The position numbers and the translations under genes were made by a program. A stretch of 64,000 nucleotides of DNA from NCBI GenBank assembly GCA_965153455.1, contig OZ234493.1, positions 26,154,213 through 26,218,212 on the forward strand, given 5' to 3'. This DNA is from Sphagnum compactum. Its lineage: Eukaryota. Of this stretch, positions 11,436 to 50,044 are shown one piece after another (the first letter of the stretch is position 1; every line of letters begins with the position of its first letter). The notes beneath the pieces are model-generated. The model worked only from the letters and a program-made list of their open reading frames with translations, had not been told where the DNA came from and made no database searches.

Positions 11436-11785
11436 CTCCTCACAAATTAACTTACACAAGAGTAATGTATTCTATACAGATGAGCTTCACAAATAGCTTG
11501 TACAAAAATTGTTGTATTTTCCAAAGGAAAAGAGGGGGGAGGGAGGGATGCTCCTCACAAATTAACTTACACAAGAGTAATGTATGTATACAGATGAGCT
11601 TCACAAATAGCTTGTACAAAAATTGTTGTGTTTTCCAAAGGAAAAGAGGGGGGAGGGAGGGATACTCCTCACAAATTAACTTAGACAAGAGTAATGTATG
11701 TATACAGACGAGCTTCACAAATAGCTTGTACAAAAATTGTTGTATTTTCCAAAGGAAAAGAAGGGGGGGGGGGGGAAGGGGGGGA
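11436..11785. repeat. Tandem repeat, three copies of ~115 bp
   Basis: CTCCTCACAAATTAACTTA starts at 11436, 11551 and 11665; units are near-identical. Confidence 0.95.
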
Positions 11786-16696: not shown

Positions 16697-19272
16697 TCAA
16701 TTTGTAGAAGTAACTTCGGAGTTTTCGACGTTTTTGATGAGGAGTTGCATGCCGAATTTGGGCCATAAATTGTTGCCGCCACGGCCTGGTGCATGGCAGT
16801 AGCTTGGCGACACAGAGAAGCTGAAACGCCGTAGTAGCATGGCCAAAAGCAGCTTCACAGTCATGCGCGCCAGGTTCCGGCCTAAGCAGATCCTGTTGCC
16901 GCCGCCGAAAGGCATGAAGTTGTTGAAGCTGTTGACACTATTGGCGGCGGCAGCAGTAGCAGCATTGAGGCCGTCAGCTGCACTGTTCTTCCCGTTTGTA
17001 TGAACATTCTTCACCTCCCAACGATCCGGCTTGAATAGATGGGCATCCTGGCCCCAAATCTCCTTGCTTTGATTCAGTACTGCCATGGGGATGATCACAT
17101 TGGTGCCTGGAGTTATGGTCACTGATCCAAGCTGATGTACCTCGGAAGCATCTCTGGTTATCGCCTGTACTGGTGCGTAGAGTCGTAGCGTTTCATTCAG
17201 TATCATGTCTATCTGTAATCAGTAGAAAAGCAGCTAGCGGAGTTAGGAAATCTTTCCATTAGGTTTGCTATATGATCACAATAGCTTTCCATTATATATG
17301 AACGACTGATGCATGCAGTTTGTATAAGAGAGAGTTTCTGTGATGGGATTTGTAGGTACCAATTTGAGGTTAGCGAGGTTGTCAACTTGGGGAGTATCTT
17401 CGGCGCCAAGGACTTCCTGCACTTCAGAGCGTGCACGTTGTTGCCAGTCGGGGTTCTGAGCTAAGAGCAAAAGTGACCACATCAAGAGTAGGGAGGTGGG
17501 GCTGTCGGTTGCTAAGAAGAAGACCGTGCATTCGTCTAGCACCTGCGACGCCGTCATGTTGGAGTTCCCTTCGTTCATTGCCTCCAACATCATGCCCAGT
17601 ACATCGCTCCCATACGCACTCTGCCTTGATCCAGCCTTGGCAATAATGCTGCTTCCCTTCAAGTCGTTCGCCACTTTCATCCTTGCACTCACGATGTTTT
17701 TGAGAACTTTTACCATAGCCCGTTTCTTTATCCAGAAGTTGATATTTGTTGCAGTTGGAAAGAAACTGGATAACAAGTAAGATACACACACAGCCATGGA
17801 AAAATTAGTTTTCTTTCCTATCGAGACCGGAACTCATGTACCGGCCTGCAGCTCCTAGATTTCACATTCTTCCTGCTTGGGGCACAAGTCTTGATGAAGG
17901 GTTCATGATCGATATTGCAATCTATGTAAACATGGTCCAGAAATAATTGTGCTCAAAACGTGGGGTCAGCTGCTGCAACAATGGGAAGTTAGTATGGTAC
18001 ACACCTATATCCGGGAATGAGGCGGGCATATCCGCGGATTCTATTCCCAATTACACCGGTCATGAAATTGACAGCGTCGTGAACGGCATAGATATCACCA
18101 CCCTCGATACCAGATGTAGAACCGAAGGTCGTCCTGATAATGATATCCAGCAGCGTTTCTGGCACATCCACGTCTACTGCAACTTCTGCTGCACCCTGTT
18201 TGATGTCTGCTGCGTTGTTGATCGCTTTCTGCCACTTGGTTACCAGATCATCTCCCCTTTCAACGATCTGGTGGAACAGACCCTGCATGCAGAATAATTC
18301 AATGCGCTGCAAAGTCAGCACGAGGAGGGCGCGCAATAGATCTATATTGCACTTGGGTACGTCGTAACAGTTATGAAGTCGAACAGTTATGAAGTCGAAC
18401 ACGTCTCTCATGAAATGTGTGATCTTGAAGGGTTTATAAGAAGTCCAAGGGATTCCAACTTGCCTTAAGAAAGGTGTGACGAAAAGCTGGGCTCATGATT
18501 TGGTTCTTTTGCTTCCAATTGCCTCCTTCGGCCGTAAGGATACTACCATGACCCGCGATAGCAGAAACAGCTTCGCTGGCAAGAACGCTCTTTTTGTAGT
18601 ATCCCGCCTTTGACAGCAACACGTCCTTCGCCAACTTTGCATCGGCAAGTATCATCCTTGTCATGGAGCCTTGCTCGAAAACAGAAATTTTTCCTGAAAC
18701 CCCAGAACGTAATTTACGGAGCTGCTTAGTTAGCGCAGAAGAGTAGAAAGCACTCCGCGTCTTCTCTTTCGAACCTGCTAATTATTGTTTGCGAAACAGA
18801 CTGGCCAACATTGAACTCATGACTTCCTTCGAATTCACAAGAAAGTTTACTCGAAGGATTGATACATATATACAGTAGCGTAAGTAGTGTGATCGAAAAT
18901 CTTACCATACTTCTCACTGAAGACGAATAGTTCCGTTCCCACTCGTCCTGCCGGCGATTCAGAGATCTGACCACCGAGCTTCGGCACCCCTCTACGTAGC
19001 TCCCGAATCTCGGGCAAGTTGCCGATGAAAGGTCTGAAGACGGGGCCGCTGATACCTTGCTTCTCGTAGAATCTCCGTTTGCTGTAAGGTTTCCACAACA
19101 TCCAATAGAATATATTCACCATCGATACAACCAGAACCGTACTGCATACCGCTGTTACAAAAGATCCCCACTCATCATCCACAATATCCCTACTCGAAAT
19201 CCTCAGAAGAATGTCCTGATCAGCCTCATGAGGAGGAAGCCAACTCCTGCTGGACTCATTTAGTAATGCCAT
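16697..19272 (-). CDS. Cytochrome P450, CYP72 clan; 5 exons
   Basis: Exons 19272-18906, 18693-18464 (GC donor), 18282-18005, 17765-17360, 17212-16697. N-terminal TM segment, QGISGP..PFIGN, PDWQQRARSEV, ETLRLY (ExxR), PDRW and the heme motif FGGGNRICLG are present. Intron positions match the CYP72-clan pattern. Confidence 0.92.
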
Positions 19273-19911
19273 CACGCTCGTTAATCGATCACTCGAGATT
19301 GAAAACGTCGCAAAAAAAGGCAAAAAAAAAAGAGAAAAAAACTCTGTGGGACTCTCACAGTCTCTCTCCTCTAGTAGTGCATGAGGTAGTTGATTTATAA
19401 TATGGACAACAACAACAACAACAGGTGACAAAAAAGAGATAGATCTTCAATAAGTGATCAATCGCGAATGTCCTGACTCTACCCAACTACAAACACAACA
19501 AGCTTTGATTTCTAATAATAATTTCGTCGATAGAAGAATGTGCGTCATGAACTTCAGAATTTGTTGTTGTGCAGGAGTTTGATGGATTATTGTATGGATC
19601 CGGGGTTTAGGCGTGATCTATTTATACTCTTGTTATCCTCTTCTTGTGCTCGGCTGAATGAAACTGCGAACTTACTGAGAACGAACTGCTAGCCTTGGCG
19701 GCGCGTGGCAAGTGGCAGTTTTGTCGTACTCCTCGAGATCTGTCGATTTTAGCTTTGCCGCATTTGGCTTCTTCTGTTGGGATCTCAGGCAACTTCCTGA
19801 ATGGACATGTGTCAGGCAATTTTCCTCCTCCACGGACATGCCAGCTGAGCGGAGGATCATCATCCAAGCAAGTAAGCAAGAAGCCTCCCCGCGGAGTCCC
19901 GTGGGGCCTTG

Positions 19912-30060: not shown

Positions 30061-30671
30061 CAAGAGTGCATGCATTTATGTTTAATGAACCACGGGTGAG
30101 TAATGTCATACTCAAAGGATCTTCCGAAATGTCTAAGCAGTAGTTTTGTTCGTCCCCATCCATCTTTGGTTAAATAATAATGTTGGTCTTGGCCTGATCA
30201 ACAAGGTTTGTGCTTCATGGGCCAGATTTTAGTAATCTTGTACAGTGTATTTTGGTCCTTATTGTTCAACATTCATCCTTTGATCATGTCCCCCATCTTG
30301 GTAACAAAATGATTTATTTTCCTTTCTAAGTTTGGACCTCAATGTGGTCTGGTGTTGCATCCACTTCCATCACAATGAAAAGATTGTTGATAATTTCACT
30401 ACCCTTAGTGGACATGGAAACCTCTTGTGCAATCCTAATTTAAATTCTGAATCTCACTTCGAAAGTTTTCATGAGCTTCATACTTGCCAACCGGGTTTTT
30501 GCTCAATGCATCCACATTTGTCCACCAAAAGAGTAAGCGGTTCAATTTACTTGACAATTGTGATTTTTTTTTTTAAATATTCAAAAAATTACGATTGAAA
30601 CATAGTCAAAGATGACATTAGGTCGAAGGCGAGTTGGTTGAAAAAGAGGGGTTATCTATTAGTGATTCAAT

Positions 30672-31129
30672 TGGCAATAGATGAAGGTAATTCATTCAAC
30701 CTGACACATTTTAACAAATTAAGTTCCTTGAATGCATGAAAGGCCAATAAACATAAGTAATTCCTCCAAGTTCGTATGTTCCCACAATTAAAACTTTTGG
30801 AGTGCATTTAATTTGCCAATGTACATGCAAGTAATTCTTGCAAGTTGAAACATTCACACAAATCAAGATTTTTAAGTGCATTCAATGACCAATAGATGAA
30901 AATAATGTTTTGAAACTGGAACACCTTAACAAATGAAGCTTTTGGAATGTACTCAATTGGCCAATAGTTGAAATAGTTATTTCAAATTGGACACCTTGAC
31001 AAATGAAGGACTTTGAGTGCATTCAATTTGCCAATAGATGAATATTTCTCTCACGATGCTCTCGAGTTGGAGAAGTCTTATAAGTAAAGATCTAGAGTGC
31101 ATTCAATTGGCCAGTAGATGAAGGTAGTT
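30672..31129 (-). pseudogene. Degenerate orphan LRR units (~6), the former 3' part of the NLR LRR array
   Basis: Repeated GAGTGCATTCAATT.GCCAATAGATGAA motifs match the 72-bp LRR unit but contain indels and stops. Confidence 0.85.
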
Positions 31130-34100
31130 CACTAATAAAAACTCCCCCATTTTGTAACTATGTTTTCAACTAGCATTCAATTACAAACCAAGTCGAAAAC
31201 TACACATATAATTGTAACTTGTTTTTTGCAATTGGTAACCAATAATGTCAACAAGTACAAGTCGAGAATGAAATTTAGTCAAAAGTGTATGCCACGTGTC
31301 AACACCATAACAATAGCTACTACATGCCATTGTTTGCCAATTTAGTTGAAAGTTGTTGTACCAATTTAGTTGAGGGATGATTCAACTAGATTCGACTATT
31401 GAATGAACTTCATCTGCTAACTGGGCGTGACGTCACCCAAAAATAAAATTACAATTTTAACTATGTTGCAACTATGTAAACTGAACACTTGGCTAGTTGT
31501 TTGGTATAGTCACAATGTTAAGGTCAACAAATAGTTAAATGACACTTGGCACATCCACATCAATAGGTTAAGCCGCATGGTGCTTAATCATAGGTTAGGT
31601 TTAAACCTAGGTCTCTAGGCTAAACCTATACATAGGCCGTTCAACTTAGGATTAAATTAGGGTTGGACCTAGACACCTATGCTAGACCTAGACTTAGGCC
31701 ATGTGGTAATTATAAATGAAATTATATTACATTTGGTTGAACCTTTAGGGTTGAACCTTTTTAATTGGATCATCCCAAATGACTATTACATTTTCATATT
31801 TATCATGTTTTCCAACAATCTTAATGCACTCCTTTAAATAGTTTGGATTCATGGAATGGAAGCCAAATAATTGGGATAAAAAATTTAGTTATAACCTAAT
31901 TGTAATCCAGTTACAACCTAATTGCAACTCAAATAGTTGTAATCTAGTTATATAAGTTAGTTTAAGCTTAATTAGGCCTAGTTTAAAGTAATAATCTACC
32001 TAGCCTAAGTTTAGTTAGTTACTCTAATTACTTGTAGTAATTATTTATCAATTATTTTTAATTGTATAGTTGTATAAGTAAACAATTAAACATATTTCCA
32101 TCATATTAAATAATATGGTGATTAGTTAGTTTAAAAGAAAATCAGCAATTAAATGTAATTGTCTTTAAAAAATAAGTATTAATATTATTGAATATTTTTA
32201 AAATTCCAAATCCATAGGGTTTTCAATATTTCATAAAACAAGGAATTAACTCAAATATAAATATTCAATAATATATTTTAAATGAAATTTTAATTAAATT
32301 GATTATTAAAATATAATGATAAATACTAATTGGCTATAATAACCAAAAAAACATTAATAATACTATTGTAGCTAATAGTTAGGCTAGGCTAGTTAATTAT
32401 TAACTATTATTCATATATTTCTCTACCTTATTGGAACTATGATGAATTAATATAATAGAGGTTAAGTAAGAAAAATATAACAAAAATAGATCTTAAAACA
32501 TAGTAATGTTAAATGAAAATAATCTCTTCAATTATATAATAATTTATCAAATATATATTTCTAATTATTTCAATAATTTTTATAATTTAATCATAAATAA
32601 ATAATAAAATAATTGGTAATAAAATGAAAACATGAAAATTTTATTGGAACTAATAACCAACACTAGAAAAAATATTGAATTTATAAAAAATATTAATAAT
32701 GTATCATTACATGATATGTTGTAAACTAAAATTGATCTACATGGAAATAATAAATTACAGATGTATTGAACATATTCCCAAAAAATATTAATTAAGCCTC
32801 ATTACTTGAGATGTTGTAAATTAAAATTGAATCTACATTGAAATAATATATTATGCATGTATTGAACATACACATTATTAAATTGACTTATATTTCCAAA
32901 ATTGCTTAAATTTTATTTTCAAATTAAAGTGTAATATTTATATGCACAAAAAATTTCTTGTTACATAACCAATGAACCATTCATGTATACAAAAAACATT
33001 TACATGGATCTTAATAATTAATGAATTTATATTTTATTTTAAATATATATTAAGACATCATATGTATAAAAATGAATGAACATTACAGTTCCACAAAATT
33101 ATTAATTATGTATCATTTCTTGATTTTTTGTATATTAAAACTTGATTACAAAAAAATAATAAATTACATATATTGAACATTCATTATTACAAACTCATAT
33201 TTCATAAATTCTTTAAATTTTATTTTGAAATTACATATTTATATGCACAAAATTATTTGCATCATACATAACCATTCATTTGATACAAAAAAAACTTACA
33301 TGTAATTTAATCTATTTACGAAGGTAGATAATTTGTTTTGTTTTGTTTTATTATGTTTAGATTTTTTGAACTAAATTGCTTCATGCAATGCTATTAATAT
33401 ATTTGAAAACCTAACAATGAGTAGGGTGCATTGACTTGGTTTGAGAATTTTTGGAGCTACAATGCAAAGGTTATTGATTATTGAATCATTTTCTTGGTAA
33501 ACCTTAATAAAATCATACATAAAAAGTGTATTTGAATCTAAGGGTTTACTTGGTGCCGTTGGAAAATAATTGATGAGCCAAATTTAATGAAGTTTATTTA
33601 GTATTTTCATATTTAAGGTGCGGAAGATATTGAATTTTGAATGAATCTTGTTTCTGAAAATTCAATCCATTTTTTTAAAAAATGGGTTTAGAATGGAAAA
33701 TGCTTTGAGTGTGTTCACACTTGGGGCCATCAACACATGTTACATTATTCGTTCATGAAGGAAGGTAGTCTGTTTTGTTTTGTCACAATGAAATCTCCCA
33801 AACCATAGCATTTTACGTTATGCTATGGGACATATCATCATAAAGTTCTCAATGAGTAGGGGTGCACCAACTTGGTTTAAAATGTTTGGAGTTATGGTGT
33901 AGAATTTATCGATTATTCAAGCATGTTTTCATTGAATTTATTAAAAAAACCAATATTGAAAACTATGTTGGAATATGGGGGCATTCTTGCTATTATTGGA
34001 AAGCCCTCACCAAGTTTGATTTAATAATGTTGATTCCATAATTTTGAGACCTAAAATGGGAACTATATTATTGAAATATTAGTGGGTATTGTTGTTATAA

Positions 34101-34830
34101 ATTCAAACAAATTACAAAAAGGGGTTACGAAGGAAAATTCAATTGAATGCATTCAAACTTGGGCCAATGACATAAGGTACATTAGTGTTTAATGAGTTTT
34201 TATCATAATTTTAAACAAATATTAAGATATCATGTATATAAAAATGAATAAACATTAGAGTTGCACAATATTATTAGTCATGTGTCAGTACTTAATATGT
34301 TTTAATGATGTACATAAAAATAATAAATTACATGTGTATTGAACATAAACATTATTACTAACATATATTTAGAATTTCCAAAACTTTATTTTGAAATTAA
34401 ATTTTAATATTTATATGCAAGAAAAAAACCATTCATTTATACAAATAAAATTTACATGAAAGTTAATGTTATTATAATTTTAAATAAATATTAAAATCAA
34501 AGTTGCATACTAATTGTTTAACCTAGTTGAAATAAATAGTTACAAACAAGACTACATTTGATTTGTCCTTTAATACATTTTATCATCCATATATGTGTGT
34601 TGTTGGTGTCATTAAAATAATTGAACATTCATCAATGTTTTGACTATATGCCAATTAAAGAACCTTAGATGCCAAAAATATTTTTAAAATGGCACTTTTG
34701 TGAAAACATGTTTCACATTGTTTATCAACATAGTTGAGTGTTCAACTTGGAGAGACATTGTTGATGTTGAGAATATTCAGTAATTGACCAACTAGTTGAA
34801 AAATGTTTTCGACTATATACCAATATAGTA
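31130..34830. mobile_element. ~3.7-kb non-coding CACTA/EnSpm-like insertion within the LRR array
   Basis: The left junction GAAGGTAGTT|CACTAATAAAA and right junction TAGTA|ATTGGAACAC interrupt one LRR unit. CAACTAG/CTAGTTG subterminal motifs occur near both ends. The right TIR and TSD are imperfect. Confidence 0.55.
33311..34185 (+). mobile_element. Nested Helitron-like element made of two ~440-bp tandem units
   Basis: A|TCTATT 5' end and TTAG|T 3' end; AATGAGTAGGG..GCA..ACTTGGTTT occurs twice (~33415, ~33850). Removing it restores a unit homologous to 33001-33060. Confidence 0.55.
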
Positions 34831-34839
34831 ATTGGAACA

Positions 34840-36800
34840 CTTTCATAAATAAAGCTTTCGGAGTGCATTTGATTGCCAATAGATGAAGGTAGTTCTTCCA
34901 AATTGGAACACCCTTTTCAATAAAGCTCTTGGAGTGCATTCAATTAGCAGCAGATGAAGGTAGTTCTTTCAAGTTGGAACACCCCTACAAATTAAGCGTT
35001 TGGAGTGCATTCAATTGGCCAATAGATGAAGGTAGTTCTTTCAAGTTGAAACACCCTTCTACATCAAACATTTCGAGTGCATTCAATTGGCCAATAGATG
35101 AAGGTAGTTCTTTCAAGTTGGAACACCTTCCTAAATAAAGCTTTTGGAGTGCATTCAATTGGCCAATAGATGAAGGTAGTTCTTTCAAGTTGGAACACTC
35201 GCACAAATCAAGCTCTTCGAGTGCATTCAATTGGCCAATAGATGAAGGTAGTTCTTTCAAGTTGGAACACCCCCACAACTGAAGCTCTTGGAGTGCATTC
35301 AATTGGCCAATAGATGAAGGTAGTTCTTTCAAGTTTGAACACCTTTCTAAATCAAGCTTTTCGAGTGCATTCAATTGGCCAATAGATGAAGGTAGTTCTT
35401 TCAAGTTGCAACACCCCGACAAATCAAGCTGTTGGAGTGCATTCAATTGGCCAATAGATGAAGGTAGTTCTTTCAAGTTGGAACACCCTCCTAAATAAAG
35501 CTTTTGGAGTGCATTCAATTGGCCAATAGATGAAGGTAGTCCTTTCAAGTACGAACACCACCACAAATAAAACTCTTGGAGTGCATTCAATTGGCCAATA
35601 GATGAAGGTAGTTCTTTCAAGTTGGAACACCCTTCTAAATAAAGCTTTTGGAGTGCATTCAATTGGCCAATAGATGAAGGTAGTTCTTTCAAGTTGGAAC
35701 ACCCTACCAAATAAAGCTTTTGAAGTGCATTCAACTGGCCAATAGATGAAGGTAGTTCTTTCAAGTTGGAACACCCTTCTAAATAAAGCTTTTGGAGTGC
35801 ATTCAATTGGCCAATAAATGAAGGTAGTTCTTTCAAGTTGGAACACCCTTCTAAATAAAGCTCTTGGAGTGCATTCAATTGGCCAATAGATGAAGGTAGT
35901 TCTTTCAAGTTGGAACACCCCCACAACTGAAGCTCTTGGAGTGCATTCAATTGGCCAATAGATGAAGGTAGTTCTTTCAAGTTGGAACACCCTTCTAAAT
36001 CAAGCTTTTGAAGTGCATTCAATTGGCCAATAGATGAAGGGAGTTTTTTCAACTTGGAACACCCTATCAAATAAAGCTTTTGAAGTGCATTCAACTGGCC
36101 AATAGATGAAGGTAGTTCTTTCAAGTTGGAACACCCTCCTAAATAAAGCTTTTGGAGTGCATTCAATTGGCCAATAGATGAAGGTAGTTCTTTCAAGTTG
36201 AAACACCCTCCTAAATCAAGCTGTTGGAGTGCATTCAATTGGCCAATAGATGAAGGTAGTTCTTTCAAGTTGGAACACCCCCACAAATGAAGCTCTTGGA
36301 GTGCATTCAATTGGCCAATAGATGAAGGTAGTTCTTTCAAATTGGAACACCCCCACAAATGAAGCTCTTGGAGTGCATTCAATTGGCCAATAGATGAAGG
36401 TAGTTCTTTCAAGTTCGAACACCTTTCTAAATCAAGCTTTTCGAGTGCATTCAATTGGCCAATAGATGAAGGTAGTTCTTTCAAGTTGGAACACCCTTTT
36501 AAATCAAGCTCTTTGAGTGCATTCAATTGGCCAATAGATGAAGGTAGTTCTATCAAATTGGAACACCCCCACAAATAAAGCCCTTGGAGTGCATTCAATT
36601 GGCCAATAGATGAAGGTAGTTTTTTCAACTTAGACCACCCTGACAAATGGAGCTCTTGGAGTGCATTCAATTGGCCAATAGATGAAGGTAGTTCCTTCAA
36701 ATTGGAACACCTTGACAAATCAAGCTCTTGTAGTGCATTCAATCGGCCAATAGATGAAGGTAATTTTTTCAAGGTGGAACACCCTGACAAATCAAATACT
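34840..36800 (-). repeat. Coding tandem array of 27 x 72-bp LRR units (25 before the stop codon, 2 after it)
   Basis: The GATGAAGGTAGTT motif recurs with an exact 72-bp period from ~34885 to ~36757. Confidence 0.97.
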
Positions 36801-39800
36801 TGTAATTGTAAACAATCAAACAAATTACTTGGCAACTTTCGAATCATGCAATTTTTGAGGCACAACCACTTAACATTATTCAAATTTCGCCCTTGAATGC
36901 AATTTTCCACAATAGTTGGTGAAGCTTCTGTTAAGTCAACCAACCTAAGGTTACGAAATCCTTTGGAGCCGATTTGGGACAATGTAGTCAAATTGACACA
37001 TTTTTTCAATGAGATGCCTTCTAAAATTTCCACCACCTATCACATGAAATGAAAACAAAAGGATTATCAATATAAAAAAAACATTTCATCTTATTATTAA
37101 TTTTTATTAAAAAACATTATTCATAAAATCAAAATTCAAAGTTAAAACATTTGTTTTTGGACATTAAAAAAATTCATAAAAAATCGAAATAAAATTATAA
37201 GATTGAAATAATATGGTGACAACCTGATTGTTTGGTAAAACAAAATTTGGTTCATTTGCTTTCCATATAAATCGATTCATAATTGGAAGTTCCATTGCAA
37301 TATTTTGACCCATGTCTCGTAATTGTTCATGTATGTACAAGATTCCACCTTCTCCGCATTGGATTAAAGATCTATGTTGTAAATTTTGCAATGCAAATTT
37401 TGGGTGTAAATAATCTCCATTCCACGCTCGACAAATTGTCCTTATTTTCAAACCACCAAAGAAACAAGCAATATCCAAAAACATCCTTTGATGTTCCTTA
37501 TCCAAATACTCATAAGATATCTTCAATTTACTCCAAAGTTTTTCATTATCATTGCCCCCCGTGAAACTTTGCCCACTTTTCAATTTGTTCAATGCGCCTT
37601 CCCAGATTTCCAATTCTTTAGTATCGCACAAAAAAGAACCCAATACTTTAAGACTTAAAGGGAGCCCTCCACAAGCTTTTATAATCTCCTTACATATATC
37701 TTTGAAATATTTTGTTGGAACATGATTTGCATTACCGAATGCATGGAACATAAAAAGTTCCATTGCTTGCTCTTTCTCCAAAGATTTCATGATCATTTTT
37801 CCATCTTCACTTACGTGAGATTTTAGATTTTGCCAATTTCGACAATTCACAAGTATTCTACTTTTAGAAGCTGCATTCCTAGCAGCCTTATCAATGAAAA
37901 TTGGCAAGGACAGGTTCTCCACTTTACCAACATCATCCACCACCACTAACACTTTTTTTGATATCATACATTGCCTAATTTTGTCAAAGTCTTCTTTGTT
38001 CACATTTTCATCCTTGGATATTTTTTTGTCACACAAATCATGTAGGAGTTGTTTTATGACATCATTGATATTGTCCTTTGAATTCACATCCTCCAAAAAA
38101 CTAGATTTGTCATATTGGTTGTGGAACAAATGATAGAATTTTTTGCTCAAAGTGGTTTTCCCAATTCCCCCCATTCCAACCAAACCAACAATAGATTCCT
38201 TTTGTAACAAGATGTTTATATCTTTTGCTTTGTCAATCAACGCCACCTCATGACATGGCAAAGGTGGAAGTAATATATTTTTCTGTCAAATTTCACAAAA
38301 CAAAGGTCATTTATATGTTATTTTTCTTACTTGATAACCAATATATATGACATTGCATATGCGATACACATCAAATGTGCTATGACCTAAAATGTATAAA
38401 ATAACATGAACATATATGAAGTCAAAAGACTTAGATTTGATGTTTTTACCTCCATACATATTCTCAAACATTGTAACAATAAATAATAGCTTGGATGATT
38501 TTTGTTTGGTGGCTTGCAAATTGTCAAATGATTAGCATCTTCGATTCTATAATGGTTGTTGTTTGACAATTGAATAGCTGAGGAATATGGCACTAAAATT
38601 CCCTGTATGAGCAAAAGATTAAGTTAATGGAACTCATTTACTTGTTTGTTCAACTATGCTTGAACTTATAAGTAACACAGTAAATCCAAATGGTGGTGGA
38701 AACTATAGCTTAATAACTATTGATGTTTCAATAACAATGAAATATTTTGTGTGAAAGTAATTTCCTTCAACCTTTTGGCAAGCAAATCACAAAGTTATTG
38801 GTTTTTGATCTCATTAATCTTACATGTTTTAATGATGATATGATTTTCATGACAAATATTTGTATGGAATTGATTTGATGAAGGCGAAATTTAGAACCTA
38901 TTTCATGATGTTTGAAGTCAATCAAATTGTCTTTCCATCAATAGTATTTCATGAAACAAAGTTCATAAAACACATGACCCATTCACCACATTATTGTATT
39001 AAGAAGTATTGAGTACATGATCCCACACAAATTTTGACGATACAAAAAATGTTCAATTAATGAACTTAGTTGGATAACTTTCGATGTGGTGAAATGAAAA
39101 TCTTACCCAATTCTCGTCGAGTGGTAATCCTTCACCAAATGCATAAATGTTGACATCTTCAGGAATAGCATTTTTAAAATCTGTTGAAAGGTGTTCCATT
39201 TGTGGGTTGAAAGATTTTAAACTTTTTAAAAAACCAGATTGGGTTGCACACTTGTTCAATGTGTTGATTTGTTGATGTTGCCAAATGAAATAATTTGATA
39301 AATATTGGGTACCGCCAACATGTGGTACACCGTAAAATATTACACCTTTCACATTGTTCAAAAATGTCTTACAACATTTGTGGACTTCATCATCCAAAGT
39401 ATTTTTTGACCTTTGATGTACATGTTTGTGAGCTTCAACCACCAAGCTTTTGAGTATAAGACCTCCAAAACTATAAGCAATTAATGCCACCGGTCCATCC
39501 CAAAGCGATTGATAACTACAAAATATTCAACAATGCATAAAATTCCATTATCAACATTCTATTAACATGTACAAATTTGTCCTATTATACTTGGGGACAA
39601 TTTTCCAATTCACACATGACCTAAACCATAAGTCCGTAATTGATTTGCTTGTCATTTGTCATTTATCAATTCCATGAATTTACCTAAAAAATGTGACAAC
39701 CATGTTTTGGTAAAACAATTATATTGCTCAAGTATGTAGGCGTTTACATTCTTGTGTTAATGCACGATTCATCTTCTGTGTTACCTTGGAAATATTGTTA

Positions 39801-40820
39801 AAACAAAAAAAAATTTAAAAAAAAAAAAGATACATTCTTTTTGGAATTTTTTTTTGCAATGAAATGGATGCAAATTTTACACATGTATTAATAGAACTTA
39901 ATTTAATTCAATTCCATTACCAAAGATGAAACTCCAAAAAGCTCGACCTAAAACTTGCCATCAAAACCAAACTAGTTGTACCATGAACTTATAATATGAA
40001 CATAGACTTTGTTATTATCTTCAAACAAGAACATTTGCACATAAGCCCCATTTTATGTTCTCCTACATGAATTTAACAATTCAAATAAATTGAAACTTGT
40101 TGGTGTGTATCACAATACTAATACACATGAACAATTAACTCCTGCACAACATTTAAGAAATTCTAAAGATCTAAACAATTTTCTTTAATATACATAAGGA
40201 GAAGTAATCAATGTGTCCTTAAATAGAAGAGATTGTCACACCTTGAATTTGTAACCAAACTTTGAATGAGGTTTTTGCCAATTTCAATCACATCATTGTG
40301 AACACTTGTCACAATTTTAGAATCATAAGACAATGATAAAATTCGAACATTATTGTTCAAGTCTTCGGGTAGCCACTTTTCTGGCCAACATATGCACTCT
40401 TCTCTATTGTTGGTGGGGCATGTTGTCCATGTTTCCTTCCATTCATCATTTGTGCCAAAAGCAATCCCATGAAAAAAAACGATGGTCAAGTTTGGATTAT
40501 TGGTATTACAAGTGGGATTTAAATCATGCACTACATATTTCTGCAAAGAAAATGAAAAAGAGTCAACACAATTGTTCAAACATCTTTTGAAAATTATTTG
40601 ACTATACAATAAATTGGAGACATGCAATATACAAAATATAGTAGTTAGATAAAAGAAATAATTAATTGAAAATATTAAGTATAACAAGAAGACAATAATA
40701 GATGAATTGGAGAATGCCAAATGTATCTTGCACGACTAACAAATGAAGATCATTCACCTGCGTCAAAGTTTCAAAACATAGTTCAATTAAGTAAATACTG
40801 TTACGTAGTAGATCGAACAT
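34985..40820 (-). CDS. Alpha/beta-hydrolase-NB-ARC-LRR (HNL-type) NLR immune receptor
   Basis: Exons 40820-40758 (tentative first exon), 40540-40242, 39515-39107, 38602-38450, 38282-37224, 37036-34985; all GT-AG and in frame. Hydrolase: IVFFHG, CWPEKWLPEDL, RILSLSYDS, AYSFGG, FYGVPH, DANHLTICKP. NB-ARC: GMGGIGKT, LVVVDDV, GLPL, IHEQLRDMG. Followed by 25 complete 24-aa LRRs. Confidence 0.92.
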
Positions 40821-41304
40821 ATGTCCATCAATAAAGGTTAATTCTCAGAATTGGATTCTTTCAAGTTTGGGTCGATTAACTAAGCCATCTAGTTTGGTTC
40901 ATTTGTATTTCATGACATTTTCCCCGACATTTCGGCCACTAAGGCCTCCCACCCCTAAGAAATTGGGACACAAACCCAATAAGAATGTCCAAGAGCAGTT
41001 TAATAATTTGCCTTTGGTTGTTGGATTAAGATTACACATTGAACTTAACTCATAATCTATAATGAAAGTTCCAATCCTTACAAGTTCAATATATTCTTAG
41101 TCAATGCCAATTGACGAATTTCCCTTTCACCGATCCTATTTGTTATAGCAAGTGAGTCGCTGGCCTAATGTAAGAGGCTATAATGATGACTCCATTTCCT
41201 ACTGTTTAAAACATCATTTCATATCGTTTTTATCTAAACAAACAAACTGGAAAGTAGGCAAAGTGAAAATGTATGGCAAGGAAGCTTGTAAATGATTGAG
41301 GACA

Positions 41305-41373
41305 TTCAGTTACCCTAGTGGCTAAAGGGTATGGTTGCCAAGCTGTTGGCTAGGAGTTCAAATCTGAACTAGA
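41305..41373 (+). other. tRNA-like sequence (pseudo-tRNA or SINE head)
   Basis: A-box-like TACCCTAGTGG (41311) and B-box GTTCAAATC (41356) at tRNA spacing, with TTGCCAA in the anticodon position. Stems pair poorly. Confidence 0.3.
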
Positions 41374-41489
41374 CCTCCTTCTCCTGATGCTTTGTCAGGA
41401 CAATAAGCTAAGGTTGTTGTATGGGTCACGGAAAATTGTCAACACCCAAACAAAATTAAAAAAGCAAAGAAAAATCAAACTTAAACATG

Positions 41490-41790
41490 TAACTTGGGAA
41501 AGCCGAAGAAAAAATTGTGCAAAGAAACTTCATCATAAGAGTAAGAAAAAGCACCACATTGCCGTGCCCTCCAAAGCTTGAAGGAGCATTTTCAGCAGGG
41601 ACCAAAGGTGTCTCAATTGCAGCAGGTATCTGCACAACATCTTTACATGGGAAAGCCCAAGAAAAAACTGTGCAAAGAAAGCTCATTATAAAATTAAGAA
41701 GAAGCATCACATTGCTGTGCCATCCAGAGCTTGAAGGAGGATTTTCAGCGGGGACCGAAGGTGTCTCGGTCGCAGCAGGGATCCGCCCAA
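41490..41790. repeat. Diverged tandem duplication of ~150 bp within a coding-like segment
   Basis: The - strand peptide repeats as IPAATETPSVPAENPPSSSGWHSNV / IPAAIETPLVPAENAPSSFGGHGNV. Confidence 0.85.
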
Positions 41791-43004
41791 CATCTCTCTT
41801 TCTTTTTGGTGGCCCTTGTGAAAGATCAACTCCTTTTCCCTTGAGGCCATATGAATTTCCCATATTTCGCACTACTGAAATTCCTTTTGCTCACTGCTGT
41901 GATAAATGTTTTTCTCTTAACCTTTTGCTCTCATAAAACCTGCTACAAATCCTTTGCCATCCCAATAGCATACACAAGGTATGATGGGTGTCCCTCACAT
42001 CACAGATTCCCGCAAGCTAAGCTGATCTTTCCACTAGATCTCCCCAAAAAACATCAACCCCTTTCCTCTTCACGATCTCCCTGGAATTCCCACTCTCTTT
42101 TCTTACTCCTTTCTCGACTTTTCTCCCGGATGTTTCTTCTTCTTCTTCATTTTCTCCTCCCCCAGAAACTTCTAGAACGGTTTTGCCGGGACTCTTCAGA
42201 CTGTAGCATACGCGCTTTACCGATTTCTTGGCCCATGCTTATCATCATGACTTTTGTTCACATCCACACACCAACCTTTCTTTTACTAAAAAACCAGAGC
42301 TGAAAAAAAGCTAAGTCATCAATTTAAAAAGTGTTAAAATCAAATGCTTTTTGAGATTCTCAATAGCCAAAATTCAACCAAATTCAAAGAAAAATCGTCA
42401 GAGTTCCACACATGAGTTTCAAGTAGGTAGCCAATAAAAGAGAAATATGTTAAAAAATTTCGAATGCCATATTTAGCTCATAGCCAAATCTGACTAAATC
42501 TTCCTACCGATGATAGCCACTTGGGCTATATCTCAAAACTGACCCAACAAATTAGTGATCCACACGTTTCCTGCTGTTGGCTGGCTGATTTCAGCCAGTG
42601 CATTATTGAAGCGCTCTGCCAGAGCTCATGTTGCAGGCAATGCATGATTCATTGGGCCTTGGGCGAACCGGCCAGGCCAGGGTGAATTGACCTCCACATT
42701 GGGATCACTGTAAAAATCCCCAAAACCCATTCAAATGGCCATATTAGGCCCCAAAATTTATAGATTAGGACTTTGGGACCCTAATTTAGTCGGTCTAGGG
42801 AAATGATATTTATAAATATTTAGAACATTTACGAGCAATTTAAATGGGCTTTGTTTGCGGGGTCAAGTTGCCTTGGTTGGGTGAACCTGGCCTACATTAG
42901 AACCAACGTGAAAATCCCAAAGTTTTTGGGGGCAGCTTCAAAACATTATAGATACATGTAGTGTCCTTAGACAAAATCAGGGCCTCTGAATCTACTACAA
43001 CCTG

Positions 43005-43028
43005 AAACCCTAAACCTAAACCCTAAAC
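43005..43028. repeat. Short interstitial telomere-like (AAACCCT) motifs
   Basis: GAAACCCTAAACCTAAACCCTAAA. Confidence 0.6.
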
Positions 43029-44159
43029 TCCAGAGGCCTCACTCAAGAAGGTGAGTGTACCAGTTTAGGTGCTGGTTTGCCCTGCCCAGTGGCAATGATC
43101 CTCGGAGGAGCCTGGGGGCAGAAGGAAAAATTACATGTACGGTCGTAGCAAATAAATCCCGAGTGGAAAAACCCCTGTACAGAAAGAGCGGTGATTTTTC
43201 TGGGTGAATTTTTGCACTGTGGCTACAAGTTGTTTTCCGAAGAAACTGGGAAATTTCGTTTAATAGTGTGAATTTGAGAAAAAAAATTCTCAAAAAATGG
43301 AAAAAATGGTCTAAACAAATTTATGATTTTAATAGTCAAACTAAACAATAAATCATATTTAATTTATGAATGATAGATGGAAATGAAAGAAGGAGGCACA
43401 TGAATCATTTAGTAAAGTTATTATCCTCCGACAATGTTGAACAGACTTGTTTCTAAGGAAATAATCAATAATCAAACAAGGCTTCCATTGATAATAGGCA
43501 ACGGATGCAAGATTTAATAGACAAATGGAAAACATATAAAAGTTCATGAGTTAAGATTTCATAATTTACTAATTGAACCTACTAACAATTAATTAATTAA
43601 AAATACAGATTTTATATTTATATATTCTTAATAAGACCATGAATTAACATATACCCTAAACTAATTATATTTTGGTCTTTAGTTTAAACATAATTCTATT
43701 ATGAAATTAACTAAAGTATAATTTTTATGCAATAATCAAGATATGAGACCTTATATTTTTTATTCACTATTTTGTAAAATTTTAAAAAAGTATCCCTTCC
43801 AAGGATATGGATGACGTTTATGGCATGTCCAATTGGTTGTGCACCGAAATTGAACTTTAACAAATCGGCTTATTCCTGAAACAAGAAATGATCCTTCAAA
43901 TTTTGTGAATTACCCACAATTTAGGTTGCCTACATGAAAGGATTGTCCTCCACATCCCATGAGTACACATTGATGGTTGTATTCATGCCAAGACTTGGAG
44001 TAAAAATTGGTTGTTAAGGGCAAAAAATGGGTTATAGTAGTTATTGTTGTAGTCGGTAATTACAAGACTTATCTAAGTAAGGTTGATTTTGCTTACCTAA
44101 CCCCCCTATTATCAAGGAAAATTTGTTATAGTAATTAGAAAATAAGTGTAAGGAAAAGA

Positions 44160-46264
44160 GAGTAAGAAAGAAAATATGTCATTTAATATCTCCATAATGG
44201 TTAATTACCTAAAGGAGGAAGGATTTGGAGAGAGGAGATCATTTTGACATGTGTGATGGATCTATTAGAAATACAATAACATAGTGTGAATGTGTGTAGT
44301 TTGAGAGTTCCAACTAGTGTTGTGTGTGTAAATGATTTTAAATTTACACAATGTGTAAGTGTAAATCAATTTGGCAATATCTTTTACATGTCATGTAAGT
44401 GTATAAAGTTTGTTTAGAAAAGTGTAAGTGCAAGTGTAAATGTATAGGAAGTGACATATATAAATGTAAGTGTAAAACATTTACAAGTCTTAAACTTATA
44501 TTATTTTACACATTTTTTACACTTACATTTTTTTTGCATTTTTTTCATTATTTTCATTTATAATTTTTTGAATTATTCTATACTTAGACTTTAATTTACA
44601 TCAACATTTATGTTGCTTTATGCTATCTAAGTGTAACTAAGAGTGTAAATAGAAAATGTGAAACTCACAAGCAAAGCAAGCTCCTAAGCTTGCAATAACA
44701 ATGACTATGGTGGGCAATGCATTACACATGATCTCAAAAATCCTACAAAAAGCTAGATCCTAAGGTTACCCCCTTTTCCATTTAGAAGACCAATTTATTT
44801 TATACAAAGTTGTGCAAGTGTTTTAAACCTCATTTACACTTACACGATTTTACACACCCATTTACACATACACACAACATTGGTTCCAACTTTTGGAACT
44901 ATATATACTTGGCAAGTAATTCTGCTTTGTCAACCAATGGAAATACTTATTTTATTTTATTTTCAAATTATTCAACCCAAATTCCCATCATGTAGAATGG
45001 TTGGCCTAAAATAAATATCAATCAAATCAAAATCCTTCAAATAAATAATCTAAATTACCATATGACAAGTCACCTTCCCATCTTAAAAGTTGAAAACCCA
45101 TGATGATGATTTAATAAGTTTTATCAAGGTCCATTTTGGACATTATGACTATTAAAGGTCAACCATTCCCATTAAAGGTTATATTATGTGTAGAAATGTA
45201 GAAATCTTCATAAAGTATTTTCTTCAAAGAAAATTATTCTTTGAACGAAATAGAAAATATTTTAAAATGTTCAAGAATATTTTTTTTTGATGTGAAATCT
45301 TCAAAATTAATTAATGATTCCATAAACCAAGTTAAGTATACAATATTTTGATCAATGATCAATCATAAGCACACATCAAGAATACACAAGCACGTATAAC
45401 CTACTCCACCAAAATAAACAAACTCTTAAAAACACAAGTGGAAAAATTGTAACAATCAAAAAGATTACCTTCACTAACATAAAAAGAGAAAGAGTTAAGT
45501 TTTAGTTTGGGGATCACCACAATTCTTAAAGCATGAGGAATTTGTATTCTATTTTTCATGCCATGATCACTATCTTAAGCAATCCCCCTTCATATGAGGG
45601 ATTTTTTATTTATTTTTGTATTGAAAATTTTCCAATTTTTTTTCAAACTATTAGCAAAATGAATGGAATTTACCTTGGAAACACTTTTTGTTGTTTTTTG
45701 GTTCCTCCCATCAATTTCTCAAATGGTTTCCCAAGTGCTCAATGTGTTCCCCAAGATGTTGATAAATAAAAGGTCAGCCAGAAGGTAGCATAGATGTGCT
45801 TTTATTTTGGGTGAGTGCCCAATGCTTCAAAAAAATTGGTGATGGTCCAATCAAACTAGAATTGAGAATCATGATTATATATCAAAATCGAGTATTTGGT
45901 TTTTTGATAATTGTGATTATATATCATAATTGGATATTTGATTTGTTTGAAAAATTGTGATCATATATCAAAATTGGGTAGTTGATTTTTTGAGAACCAT
46001 AGTTACAAATCCAAAGAACCACCATGATACCCAATTGGGGTTTGGTGCAATTTTTAATAATCCCCCAACAATGACTAGAAACCATCCCCTCCAACAACCT
46101 TAATGCTTTGAAGGATTTTCAAACTAAAAAAAAACTCATTAAGAAAATCTAAATTTAATTGAATTGAACTTTGGAGAGATATGGAACTTTTTCCATTTAA
46201 GAAAAGCTGGTGGCAATTGTTAGGTTTCAATAGTTATAATTGCAAGACTTCCAACGTTTCATGT
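44160..46264 (+). repeat. Left arm of a long inverted repeat
   Basis: Reverse complement of 61905-64000 over its whole length, with scattered substitutions and short indels. Confidence 0.95.
44315..44882. mobile_element. hAT-type MITE with an 8-bp TSD
   Basis: TIRs TAGTGTTGTGTGTGTAAATG / CATTTACACATACACACAACATTG; perfect TSD GTTCCAAC at 44307-44314 and 44883-44890; many TGTAA subterminal motifs. Confidence 0.85.
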
Positions 46265-47251
46265 TTGGAGGGGAAACCTTTCATGTCAAGTGATTGATCA
46301 ATTTCTTTATAAGAAAAAAATTGTTGGGTGATCATGGAAACAACTAAAGGTTGCTTGAATTCTTTTAACCTTTTTTGGTTTCTCCCCCTTGTATCACCCC
46401 CTATTATTATTGTTCACATCAACAATTCAATTTAGTACATGATAATTGCTAGTGCAAAACAACACATATAGAGTTTGAATACTATAGCTATACGTTTCTT
46501 TAGATTTGAAACATGAACTTTGTAAATTATGAATGTGGTGTTTTTAGTCTTGATGATTGATGATGGTGGCTTAAAAACATGTCATTTCTAAGAATATTTG
46601 AAAAGGTGGTGGAGGTTTTCTTCTTTGAAATGTGCCAAGGTTTCTCTTTATTAGCTTTCACCATTATTTTTTCACTTCCTTTCTTTTGAGAAGATTACTA
46701 GTTTTTTCTTTGATTATCTTTTTGACTCCCAATTCTAAAACATGTTATTAACCGACAAAAAACCTTAAACCCCTTTTTAAAAAATGTTGTTTTGATTATA
46801 GATTATGGTTGAATTAATTAAAAATTAAAAATTGAAGGAATTTCTTGGGTTTACATTATTTTCTATGGTTCTTTTCTTATTATATCAAGTGTTTGTTGTG
46901 AAAATGTAATTGATGAATTCTTATTGCACCTAATTTGTGGTGTCCTTAATTGTTTTTAAATGTGGTTGTATAGATATATGATGGCCAATGCTCTAGAAAA
47001 AAGATTAACCTCCATGAATTATGGCCATCATTTGGCTATGGTAGACCAAATCAAGGATTGGCAACAAGGGATTCAACCCTATGTTGTCAACAACCGCATC
47101 CCCTACTACAATCTGCAACACAATCAATTTCTTCCATGGATTTTTCACCAACTTTTATGGGCCATTGAACATCCAAAATCCTCATATCCAAATTTTGCTT
47201 CAACACATGTTGGGGTAGGAGAAGGACTAAGAATTGTCATTGACCAAAGCA

Positions 47252-50044
47252 ATGGACATAATAAAAATACCAAATTTATCATTTGAAAATAAACCATCAA
47301 TAGAAATTGGTAACAATGAAACACATTGTGTTTTGGATTTAAAATGTGAAGGCAACATTTCCTTCAACAATGAACACCCAAATAATGCAAACATTCAAAT
47401 GCAACACGTTTGTATGGTAGAGAAGAAAGGCAAGTCAAAATTTGGAATTGGACTGCCAAATCTTGTGACATGTAAAAAAACTCCTAGAAGGAGGGAAATT
47501 CTAAATAATGATCAAAGGAAATTGAGACCAAGCTCCTCTTCTTATTCAAAGCAACACCAAAAATATTTACTACAACTTTGTTGTCATCAAAATATCCATA
47601 GAAATGGTTTGCCCGGATTGTTTTTTCAAGCACATTTAATATCAAGACAACAAAATTTGACACAAATTGAGTTTGTATTGAGGCAACAATACATACAAAC
47701 AAGGATTCTTGCAAGCTTTTGTAAGCACAATATGAATAGTTTTAGTGTTCTTCACAAAAGATGGAACATCAATGTTCGGGATTATATGAAAACCAAAGTA
47801 CTTGGGCATAGAATTGTGTCAAGTTGGTTGACATCTACACAAAACATTAAGCAAATTCCTCATATCATTCAAAAATATAAGCAATGGTTGTTGCTTAGGT
47901 TTCCATCAATGACACAGGATCTTATGAAGAAAAGCAATAATGGAAAGTGCAAAAGTTATGTTAGATTGCAAGGCCTAAAACATGAAATTGAAGCATATGG
48001 ATGTGTTGTAATTGATGATGCAAAGAATGAAGGAACAAGCTATCATCTCATGAGTCGAAAATTGCAACTTTTCCATCGAAATGCTCAAGTTACCAACAAC
48101 TTGCAAGTTAAAGAGGTAGGTTCAAGTTCGTTGAATTTAATTGTGAAGAAAAAAAAAGCAAGAGAAACAATTATTGCTCAAATGAACTCTATGATCAACA
48201 ATGGTAGTTACAATATTACAATGTATAAAGAGTTGTGTAAAGGAGTGTTGAAAAGTAAAATGACTTTTGCACAAAAAGAAGTGGTGCCAAACTACAACAA
48301 GGACTTCATTGTCACATCTTCATTGAATGAGAATTTGATGTTGATAATTGCCTTGAAAAAGAAAAAGAAGAAGAAGCAATATCATCTTGGTAATCAATTT
48401 TTGAAAGGCAAAGACCTACAATTGGTTATGAAGCATAATAATTCTAATAATTATTTGCGCAAGATGGATGTTATTCCAAGACAACATGTTTTTGTTGGAC
48501 ATTTTACTGCATTTTCATCATTTTTGGGGTTTAGGTTAGGACAAGAGGCACATCGTGTGAGATATGAAAGCAATGCAGGTGGGACTTCCACCATATCCGA
48601 GGTTTGAGATTTTAACCCAACCTATTAAATTCCTATAGTTGTAGATCCTTTCAATTTCAAGTTGTATACATATGCAATCTTGACAATGAGAAAACAAAAT
48701 GTTTAAGAAAGAGGTCTTGTCATTTGCTAGTTGAATGATTGATTTGAGTTTGTGGACAAAAGTTTTTTTTGTTAGTTTAACCATGAACTATTCATTGTTT
48801 GTGGTGGTAGTCATTGTCCGTGGAGTATTTTGTAAGAAGGTTTGAAGCCAAGGATGTTGTCACTGAGATGGAGGTTGAGTATTGTTCGAGGAATTGGAAG
48901 AAGGTGGATTACATTTGCACATTGTATGGTCAACGAGTTGGAGTATCAGTTACACGAGCAATGTTTTATCCTAACCCAAAGGGCTTCTCCTCCGACGTAG
49001 CCTATCGACTTCTTCACAAGAAGCTTTTTGGTTTGGTAAAATGCCACAAAATCTCTTTCCATACACAATGCCTCCCATTTTGATCATTCTCTCTATGGAT
49101 GAAAAAAAGACATCTCCATTCTCAAAAGGCATGGAGATGTCCATTAATTGGCTCAAGCACACTAGGTTAGCACGAATAGTTTTGGCTCATAACCTACACT
49201 CACACCGGTTACGTAGTCCATAATCCATTACAAAGACCTTAAAGGTTAGTGTATATAACCTATCCTCAATATACACCAAAGACGACTCTAACATGTTTTC
49301 AATCCAAGTGAATAACATATTTTCACAACAAGAGCTCTAGTAATGGTTTATGTTGAAGGCTTGTTCATGAATCCTATTGCATCCATTTATTTTTCTTTGA
49401 TGACAGATTATGGCAAGGCAAGGTGTGAAGGAAAGACATAGCTTTTTACAATGCATTTTGCATGTATGGTGTGAAACCATACAGATAGCAACAATTGTTG
49501 AAGCTGCATACATAGGTAAAAAGATATGTATACCCCCAAGACCCTCTTCATTTGACTACTCATGTAACCTAGGGTTAGCTTCTACATTGAGAAAATGAAT
49601 AATTATTTTTTTTCAAAAAAACAATTCATTTTGCAGCTTTAAGATTAAGTACTATGGTTTTTTTGTGTTTTAAAATAGTCTAATAATATTTTCAGACAGT
49701 TAGTCTCAGTATCCATTTTGGAGCTTGCCATGAATTTGATGGGTTTCATCGACCTTAGTGTCATGATTTCACCAAAAAAAAAAGAAAAAAAAACACTTTA
49801 CGTCGCTCTAAAATAATATGTAGACAAATGTATATATAACCTTGGTTACATTTTCACAAGTTTTGTTTTCGTAGTTGGGCAAGCAAGCTAACAATTTCCT
49901 TGAATTTATATCATTCTAGAGGTTTCAAGGGATTTGGACATAACCGATGATGTAATCCCAGTGCTGACCGTGGCAGAAGGTTTACATGCTCGACCGATAT
50001 TCTACGAACATTGTTTATTTACATCATTTGACCCTCATACTTAA
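47252..50044 (+). CDS. Protein with a long unrecognised N-terminus and a C-terminal AAC4-like (putative PD-(D/E)XK-fold) domain; 4 exons, start uncertain
   Basis: Exons ~47252-48601, 48811-49035, 49407-49515, 49920-50044 splice in frame (GT-AG). Spliced product: EAHRVRYESNAGGTSTISE|SLSVEYF..TEMEVEY..WKKVDYIC..RVGVSVTRAM..LLHKKLFGL|IMARQGV..ILHVWC..|..DDVIPVLTVA..IFYE. Confidence 0.75.

Follow-up and report, generated by a model that had tools for sequence, protein, structure and literature searches.

The window analysed here, a stretch of 64,000 nucleotides of Sphagnum compactum DNA, holds a tandem array of leucine-rich repeats (LRRs) of fixed length. This raises the question of whether the array belongs to a working receptor and by which process its repeat units come to differ. 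The initial annotation, made from the letters alone, had proposed a recombination-driven array in a moss NLR. According to the explanation favoured here, the array is probably the sensor domain of a functional hydrolase-type NLR that would evolve by homology-driven recombination among its own 72-nt units; the recombination step taken alone can be held with high confidence.

The open frame carrying the array runs on the minus strand from 37036 to 34985 (683 codons). TRF delimited a 72-nt tandem repeat of 27.3 copies at 34832-36792, in which matches amount to 89% and indels to 0%. The 25 units of 24 amino acids announced in the initial annotation were found at 36802-35003 on this strand, and every unit variant that it quoted is present. 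The LPS motif occurs 26 times, with an exact spacing of 24 residues throughout. Mean pairwise identity among units 1-24 is 90% for DNA and 83% for protein. Unit positions 9-24 (16 codons) form a scaffold with pN 0.025 and pS 0.088 in units 1-24, and 8 of its 16 codons are invariant across the 24 units; its description as nearly invariant even at synonymous sites is a fair one but does not hold in an absolute sense. Change is concentrated, as had been claimed, in the xxLxLxxC segment, whose x positions (1, 2, 4, 6 and 7) have pN 0.295 and pS 0.181 in the same units. At codons 1, 2, 4 and 7 of the window array there are many amino-acid changes and 0 synonymous changes between codons for the same residue. 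The beta-strand is placed at unit positions 2-6 by a single-sequence AlphaFold model (pLDDT 92.9), which agrees with the earlier assignment of the variable positions to the LRR face, and strand positions are far more variable than exposed scaffold positions. According to PMC8226289, the x positions make up the concave binding face of plant NLRs. A fold search returned generic LRR solenoids, with Leptospira LIC11098 as top match and no clue to the ligand. The TAG stop is variable codon 6 of the 26th unit, beyond which one further decayed unit extends to about 34832. A plus-strand ORF of 191 aa at 35424-35999 was rejected as a gene, being a shadow frame of the repeat.

The array is the last exon of an intact, spliced minus-strand gene that has five GT-AG introns and codes for 1,426 aa up to a single terminal stop (Table 1). 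By its domain order the predicted product is a Sphagnum hydrolase-NB-ARC-LRR receptor. The NB-ARC motifs are intact, and among solved structures Roq1 and RPP1-type receptors come closest. All of the nearest public proteins come from Sphagnum, one of them, with a 100% identical NB-ARC, being labelled S. compactum; the attribution to a moss NLR made at the outset is confirmed by the NB-ARC and LRR gene and by these relatives. DUF676 matches in 23 of 23 aligned relatives (best E=4e-6), is the ESM Atlas top match for the head (0.98), and scores E=0.0014 and 18.6 bits, just below the cut-off of 20.3, on P0002, the protein of the twin gene described below. The hydrolase Ser and His motifs are conserved among relatives. 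These matches point to a DUF676-like alpha/beta-hydrolase head, which would have enzyme activity.

Table 1. Position of the gene, of its repeat array and of the adjoining decayed region in the window.
Feature	Position	Strand	Remarks
Exon 1 (coding part): ATG and low-complexity N-terminal extension of 103 aa	41555..41863	-	GT donor; joint 41555-40540, 9 reads
Exon 2: start of alpha/beta-hydrolase domain, FFHG motif	40242..40540	-	Joint 40242-39515, 34 reads
Exon 3: hydrolase core, nucleophile-elbow-like AYSFGG motif	39107..39515	-	RNA joint, 29 reads
Exon 4: end of hydrolase, conserved His motif DANHLTICKP	38450..38602	-	RNA joint, 32 reads
NB-ARC exon	37224..38282	-	Pfam NB-ARC E=5e-35, WHD_ROQ1 E=1e-12; joint to exon 6, 19 reads
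Start of exon 6: degenerate linker LRRs ahead of the regular array	36803..37036	-	
25 complete 72-nt/24-aa LRR units (units 0-24)	35003..36802	-	Single exon, zero indels
Units 17-23: 7-unit block, replaced by 6 different units in L001	35075..35578	-	
Unit 25 with TAG stop (34985-34987), then decayed frameshifted repeat	34832..35002	-	Twin gene alike
AT-rich insertion of ~3.7 kb, approximate ends	31170..34830	.	33400-34100 part: 40 near-full-length genome matches
Decayed LRR remnant, old far end of the array	30515..31170	-	

A 153-nt tandem duplication (window 41495-41795) straddles exon 1 and intron 1. Both copies code for a segment rich in proline and for a hydrophobic one of about 20 aa; with the exon 1 splice donor used, the first hydrophobic segment is retained and the second is dropped. 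A basic PPKRKR-like stretch found close to the amino terminus recurs in many relatives. N-myristoylation at a Met-Gly start was rejected as a family feature, Gly2 being found in 7 of 22 amino termini, some of them from partial models.

Transcription was followed in four RNA runs aligned to positions 36810-42600, a target from which the array was excluded. A stranded polyA run with the same species label (12% of the run) gave 1,353 aligned reads, nearly all from the gene strand, and covers all five intron joints with the counts listed in Table 1. The reads are a mixture of close paralogues. At 38584, 19 of 50 reads carry the window-type A; the window-type T at 37775 is carried by 24 of 61 reads and the window-type A at 40352 by 13 of 92. 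An A at 36987, seen in 16 of 43 reads, is private to the twin, where "private" refers to the fetched loci only. The Logan contigs X1 and X2 supplied short pieces only.

The strongest view of how the array changes comes from a comparison with the twin gene L001. The window gene lies in one arm of an inverted duplication whose other arm carries L001 just beyond the window end. The flanks of the two genes differ at 53 of 7,351, 3 of 987 and 13 of 3,304 sites (0.3-0.7%), units 0-16 differ at 4 of 1,224 sites, and neither the last full unit nor the stop-bearing one shows any difference. Between these conserved parts the seven units 17-23 are replaced in L001 by six different ones, and the best collinear pairing of the two blocks leaves 32 of 432 sites different (P=4e-22 at the 0.7% flank rate). 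The L001 block begins with 325 nt copied from units 3.5-8, at 3 differences from the source, and ends with two identical units in tandem. The donor of the copied tract lies 13 units upstream in the same array and its 5' breakpoint falls within the scaffold. L001 units 17-20 match units 4-7 of the same gene with 3 differences, and 0 of 1,000 shuffles reached as much; for the window's own 17-23 block no simple copy source was found within the twin. L001 has Asp at position 6, a variant absent from the window array, and retains the identical stop and the open frame despite the block replacement. The earlier proposal of recombination as the driving force is borne out by this replacement between genes that are more than 99% identical elsewhere. 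Provided that the assembly is right, the comparison shows that blocks are rewritten much faster than point mutation proceeds.

The next paralogue, L002 (2.2% divergent), matches the unit order of the window for units 0-3 only and continues with about 35 reordered units. Window units 19 and 24 are identical to two L002 units. An exchange of units between genes is only suggested by this identity since the L002 units could be inherited. The unit order of the window is less telling. The succession EKLDLERC to QELxLWGC, put forward in the initial annotation as a sign of shuffling, is indeed present at units 5-6 and 20-21, but such recurrence is at chance level (one adjacent pair is repeated where shuffled orders give 0.4; p=0.35) and was rejected as proof. 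Block tests on the order gave p=0.53, 0.27 and 0.105. A failure of the four-gamete test in 43 of 120 site pairs was also dropped as evidence of recombination because recurrent mutation at hypervariable sites could yield the same result. A scan of metagenomes with the distinctive unit 17 gave 0 matches and is uninformative on variation.

The inverted segmental duplication pairs window 30784-46264 with 61905-64000, continuing into L001 and L002:1-3305, with arms of about 15 kb and a spacer of 15.6 kb. The inner 2 kb of the arms are 94.5% alike and the gene-bearing parts 99.3-99.7%, an unevenness which suggests that the arms may have been re-homogenised unevenly. A third copy of the gene (L002:3303-10000 and the start of L003) lies directly behind the twin arm. 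It matches the window gene from 41213 onward only, and thus lacks exon 1, and it has a broken NB-ARC and a stop in unit 2. The duplication spacer contains a 458-codon open frame with no Pfam match (47231-48607, plus strand). Elsewhere in the window there are a multi-exon cytochrome P450 gene (Pfam p450; 16697-19446, minus strand) and three 114-nt tandem copies that are 95% alike and open in frames on both strands (11436-11776). On the far side of the array, the decayed LRR remnant is found directly after the array in about 15 more distant paralogues and about 4 kb away from it in the clade of the window gene. This displacement and the dispersed repeat lying in between make it most likely that an insertion broke the dead array end in two in an ancestor of that clade.

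The window gene was then placed among its relatives. An NB-ARC search of the genome gave 218 candidates, of which 150 were scored, all matching. Sixty stretches were taken, comprising neighbours, best matches and a non-random spread down the list; the set amounts, with the window, to 60 loci. An LRR array is present in 59 of the 60. The 55 loci with at least 50% NB-ARC identity have from 8 to at least 73 units, several arrays extending past the fetched stretch, and the number of open units per gene varies from 1 to 70 across family members. An internal identity of 85% or more along 100 aa or more defines the fungal arrays of high internal conservation (HiC). The window array has 93% over 100 aa, and 41 of the 48 own-genome arrays with at least 8 open units are HiC by the same measure. 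Among 120 public matches, those with at least 6 LRR motifs reach this level in 33 of 51 Sphagnum-labelled and 4 of 5 Ceratodon-labelled proteins, 6 unlabelled matches being omitted from the counts. The angiosperm-labelled ones, a small control biased to long TIR-type proteins and compared at offsets below 150 aa, reach it in 0 of 7 (at least 6 motifs) or 0 of 12 (at least 4 motifs); the high internal identities that they show at offsets of several hundred residues were discarded as due to duplicated NB-ARC blocks.

The relations among units were assessed for 1,215 of them: the nearest neighbour is in the same gene for 734, in another gene for 325 and tied for 156. The distance to it is about 17 nt for edge units and about 4 nt for middle units. 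Both divergent edges and clustering by gene are predicted by unequal exchange. The 36 nt downstream of the first stop are still repeat-like in 49 of the 54 genes with a stop in range. These frames ending inside the array indicate a family without a dedicated carboxyl-terminal cap, and annotated proteins of other Sphagnum species likewise stop within a repeat or shortly beyond one. Arrays of this kind are the norm in the family, of which the window gene is an average member. In two relatives larger blocks recur: an 11-unit block is repeated several times within the at least 70 open units of L015, and a 6-unit block is repeated in L008 with its own indels included. Highly conserved LRR arrays (91-98% over 100 aa) are also found in distant moss NLRs (L060, L056, L058, P0071, P0116, P0120) that have about 36% NB-ARC identity. 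Some of these arrays are built of alternating doublets of 47-48 aa, and some of the public proteins carry kinase or ZZ domains.

Selection acts differently on the two parts of the unit. In the scaffold, pN/pS is 0.53 for units ahead of the stop (48 arrays) and 0.73 for those beyond it (34 arrays): purifying selection is clear and relaxes past the stop codon. At the x positions, comparison of nearest-neighbour units, which are not independent and bias the test toward shared polymorphic sites, gives a ratio of 1.73 (43 genes, 95% CI 1.35-2.18). The value is 1.87 for the 21 genes with a stop near the array end, and it is down to 1.14 (0.72-1.72) for units past the stop. Pooled pairwise pN/pS within x codons is 1.01. 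The x-position pN exceeds local pS in 22 of 44 arrays and array-wide pS in 43 of 44. For private alleles the ratio is 1.10 (0.92-1.34) relative to all synonymous sites and 0.62 relative to synonymous sites of x codons. The window alone has 19 distinct amino-acid changes over 12.6 x sites and 12 synonymous ones over 16.3 sites (p=0.036). Diversifying selection on the LRR surface is only partly supported: the window count, the excess over array-wide pS and the nearest-neighbour ratio speak for it, the pooled and private-allele ratios and the comparison to local pS against it. One reading is that mutations would arise neutrally and that amino-acid variants at the x positions would then be preferentially kept and spread. 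The long dead tails and early stops of many members suggest that part of the turnover is neutral.

One alternative is a neutral, minisatellite-like turnover, in which the array would be expanded and homogenised mechanically, the scaffold held by purifying selection, the x positions left to drift and units reordered without adaptive gain. In its favour are the pooled and private-allele ratios near 1, the 49 of 54 frames ending in the array and the many broken copies. It deals poorly with the excess of x-position pN over array-wide pS in all arrays save one, with a nearest-neighbour ratio that is high in translated units, higher still in late-stop genes and lower past the stop, with the window codons 1, 2, 4 and 7 that change residue and have no same-residue synonymous change, and with exposed scaffold positions being far less variable than the strand. 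Neutral turnover as the whole explanation is unlikely. Also unlikely is that the window gene is a recently truncated, non-functional copy in which the TAG of unit 25 cost a needed carboxyl terminus, a view compatible with the other alternatives. The stop does fall at a variable codon with repeat sequence running on beyond it, and early stops occur in L002, L004 and L005, the closest of the other paralogues. Nevertheless, the 1,426-aa frame is open with its NB-ARC and hydrolase motifs intact, window-type alleles are transcribed, the twin keeps stop and frame through the replacement of a block, and an ending inside the array is the norm in the family as well as in annotated proteins of other Sphagnum.

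Two further alternatives were weighed. A targeted or somatic shuffling of cassettes, of the VLR kind or of the one suggested for Ectocarpus, could take its donors from untranslated units past the stop. Recognisable units do lie beyond the first stop in 44 of 55 arrays; in 26 long-tail genes, 98 of 669 translated units have a post-stop unit as nearest relative, 36 of them within 1 nt. Such similarities are explained equally well by duplication before the stop arose. Moreover, post-stop units are decaying (scaffold pN 0.149 against 0.076), all units lie in one exon, and neither intron-bounded cassettes nor signal sequences were seen, which makes this process very improbable. The same observations qualify the phrase "modular recognition system" of the initial annotation: the recombination of unit blocks fits it, but "system" is too strong for a single exon with no dedicated machinery seen. 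The least probable of the alternatives is that the twin differences are an artefact of assembly. Tandem units so nearly identical, lying in an inverted duplication, are difficult to assemble, and the array is known from the assembly, not from reads. On the other side, the copied tract differs from its donor at 3 sites, the Asp at position 6 is found in the twin only, the diagnostic alleles of both twins (38584 A and 36987 A) occur in one RNA run, and there are no indels among the 25 units.

In the favoured explanation, that of a functional receptor with a recombining sensor, the 48-nt near-invariant scaffold would provide the homology for unequal crossing-over and gene conversion, by which units would be gained, lost and reordered. 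Selection would prevent the differing surface codes from being homogenised and would in this way lead to new binding surfaces. Protein length would depend on where in the array the first stop or frameshift falls, with no carboxyl-terminal cap. In the general model of NLR action, a microbial ligand binds the concave face, after which NB-ARC swaps ADP for ATP and the protein oligomerises. By analogy with this model and with the heads of Marchantia, clustered serine-hydrolase heads would trigger cell death. Two Marchantia hydrolase domains give HR-like cell death, as reported in PMC11218826.

Receptors of this class have been described before. Bryophyte NLRs with an alpha/beta-hydrolase were reported as HNL by Xue et al. 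2012 (PMC3352924) and as Hyd-NLR, Sphagnum included, by Chia et al. 2024 (PMC11218826), where Sphagnum hydrolase-NLRs appear in more than one clade. The window gene has their hydrolase-NB-ARC-LRR domain order and on that ground is classed as a predicted hydrolase-NLR. Its phase-0 introns within the hydrolase, between hydrolase and NB-ARC, and after NB-ARC are of the kinds and phases described for HNL in PMC3352924 and are putative counterparts of these; the gene differs by an extra phase-2 intron in the hydrolase and by its N-terminal extension. Homogenised LRR arrays are a feature of the window gene that the relevant parts of PMC3352924 and PMC11218826 do not describe for HNL or Hyd-NLR.

The closest known counterpart in mechanism is found in fungi, in the HiC NLRs HET-E, HET-D and NWD with their WD40, TPR or ANK arrays (Paoletti 2007, PMC1805685; Dyrka 2014, PMC4986451; PMC13449251). 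As presented in these papers, they have in common with the Sphagnum arrays an identity of 85% or more over 100 aa, a concerted evolution that is largely intragenic, a variable number of units, few variable residues on the binding face, units common to paralogues and many pseudogenes. Heads of the sesB-like hydrolase type are found in fungal NLRs too. The differences are the LRR type of the repeat (none found in fungal NLRs, going by these papers), the plant lineage and larger unit numbers, up to at least 73. In addition, polymorphism of repeat number among individuals, positive selection and specificity were shown in fungi, whereas the Sphagnum arrays were compared between paralogues. With NB-ARC and LRR in a moss in place of NACHT and WD40 in a fungus, the window gene would work like HET-E and NWD proteins but is outside their family. 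HiC NLRs were concluded to occur in plants in PMC13449251, whose main text mentions neither Sphagnum nor moss nor bryophytes.

Repeat turnover in LRR domains of flowering plants has a precedent in rice. The LRR domain of the CTR-NLRs Xa1 and Xa14 holds nearly perfect tandem repeats, more or fewer of them depending on the allele (PMC7748011). As characterised in that paper, the Xa1 class carries 4-6 units of 93 aa (1-9 in homologues) between an initial and a terminal LRR region; it has a BED head and is restricted to grasses. The units of the window gene, in contrast, are single 24-aa LRRs that occupy almost the whole domain; this period and the absence of a terminal region place the gene outside the Gramineae CTR-NLRs. 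The contrast to angiosperm NLR LRRs drawn in the initial annotation thus stands in part: it agrees with the 0 of 12 HiC proteins in the small, biased angiosperm control, and is weakened by the Xa1 repeats and by the plant HiC survey. The candidate immune receptors of Ectocarpus type also have reshuffled repeat units under diversifying selection, but with one exon per repeat; the window array is one open frame without introns between units and so does not belong with such exon-shuffled receptors. A study of tomato Cf-2/Cf-5 reportedly found LRR copy-number variation, the Cf proteins being surface receptors and not NLRs. Repeat shuffling in Arabidopsis RPP5 is credited to Noel 1999 by PMC13449251, where the RPP5-type repeats are given as being of low internal conservation. 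A search of titles and abstract openings, with few subscription papers, found no paper on homogenised LRR arrays in moss NLRs; Fig. 8 and the supplement of PMC13449251 could hold a moss case. Both the receptor class and the mechanism are already published, and the moss LRR version was found in no paper.

A bolder extension covers the hydrolase- and kinase-headed NLRs of Sphagnum and Ceratodon, whose open-ended, cap-less LRR arrays would be a rewritable recognition code: stops would set protein length, post-stop units would be donors, and unit blocks would be exchanged so fast that arrays differ between shoots of one long-lived haploid clone. This idea is improbable on present evidence. If true, the NLR repertoire of a plant would be diversified within one individual. 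Closer to the data, the twins offer an unusually clean before-and-after view of a block replacement, and the constant scaffold with about five variable positions would make these receptors a simple system for testing how an LRR surface encodes specificity. Since frames end in the array, many genes called "broken" may be working receptors of differing length. The finding extends the diversification mode of fungal HiC proteins to LRR domains, in an NLR family that is very large in mosses.
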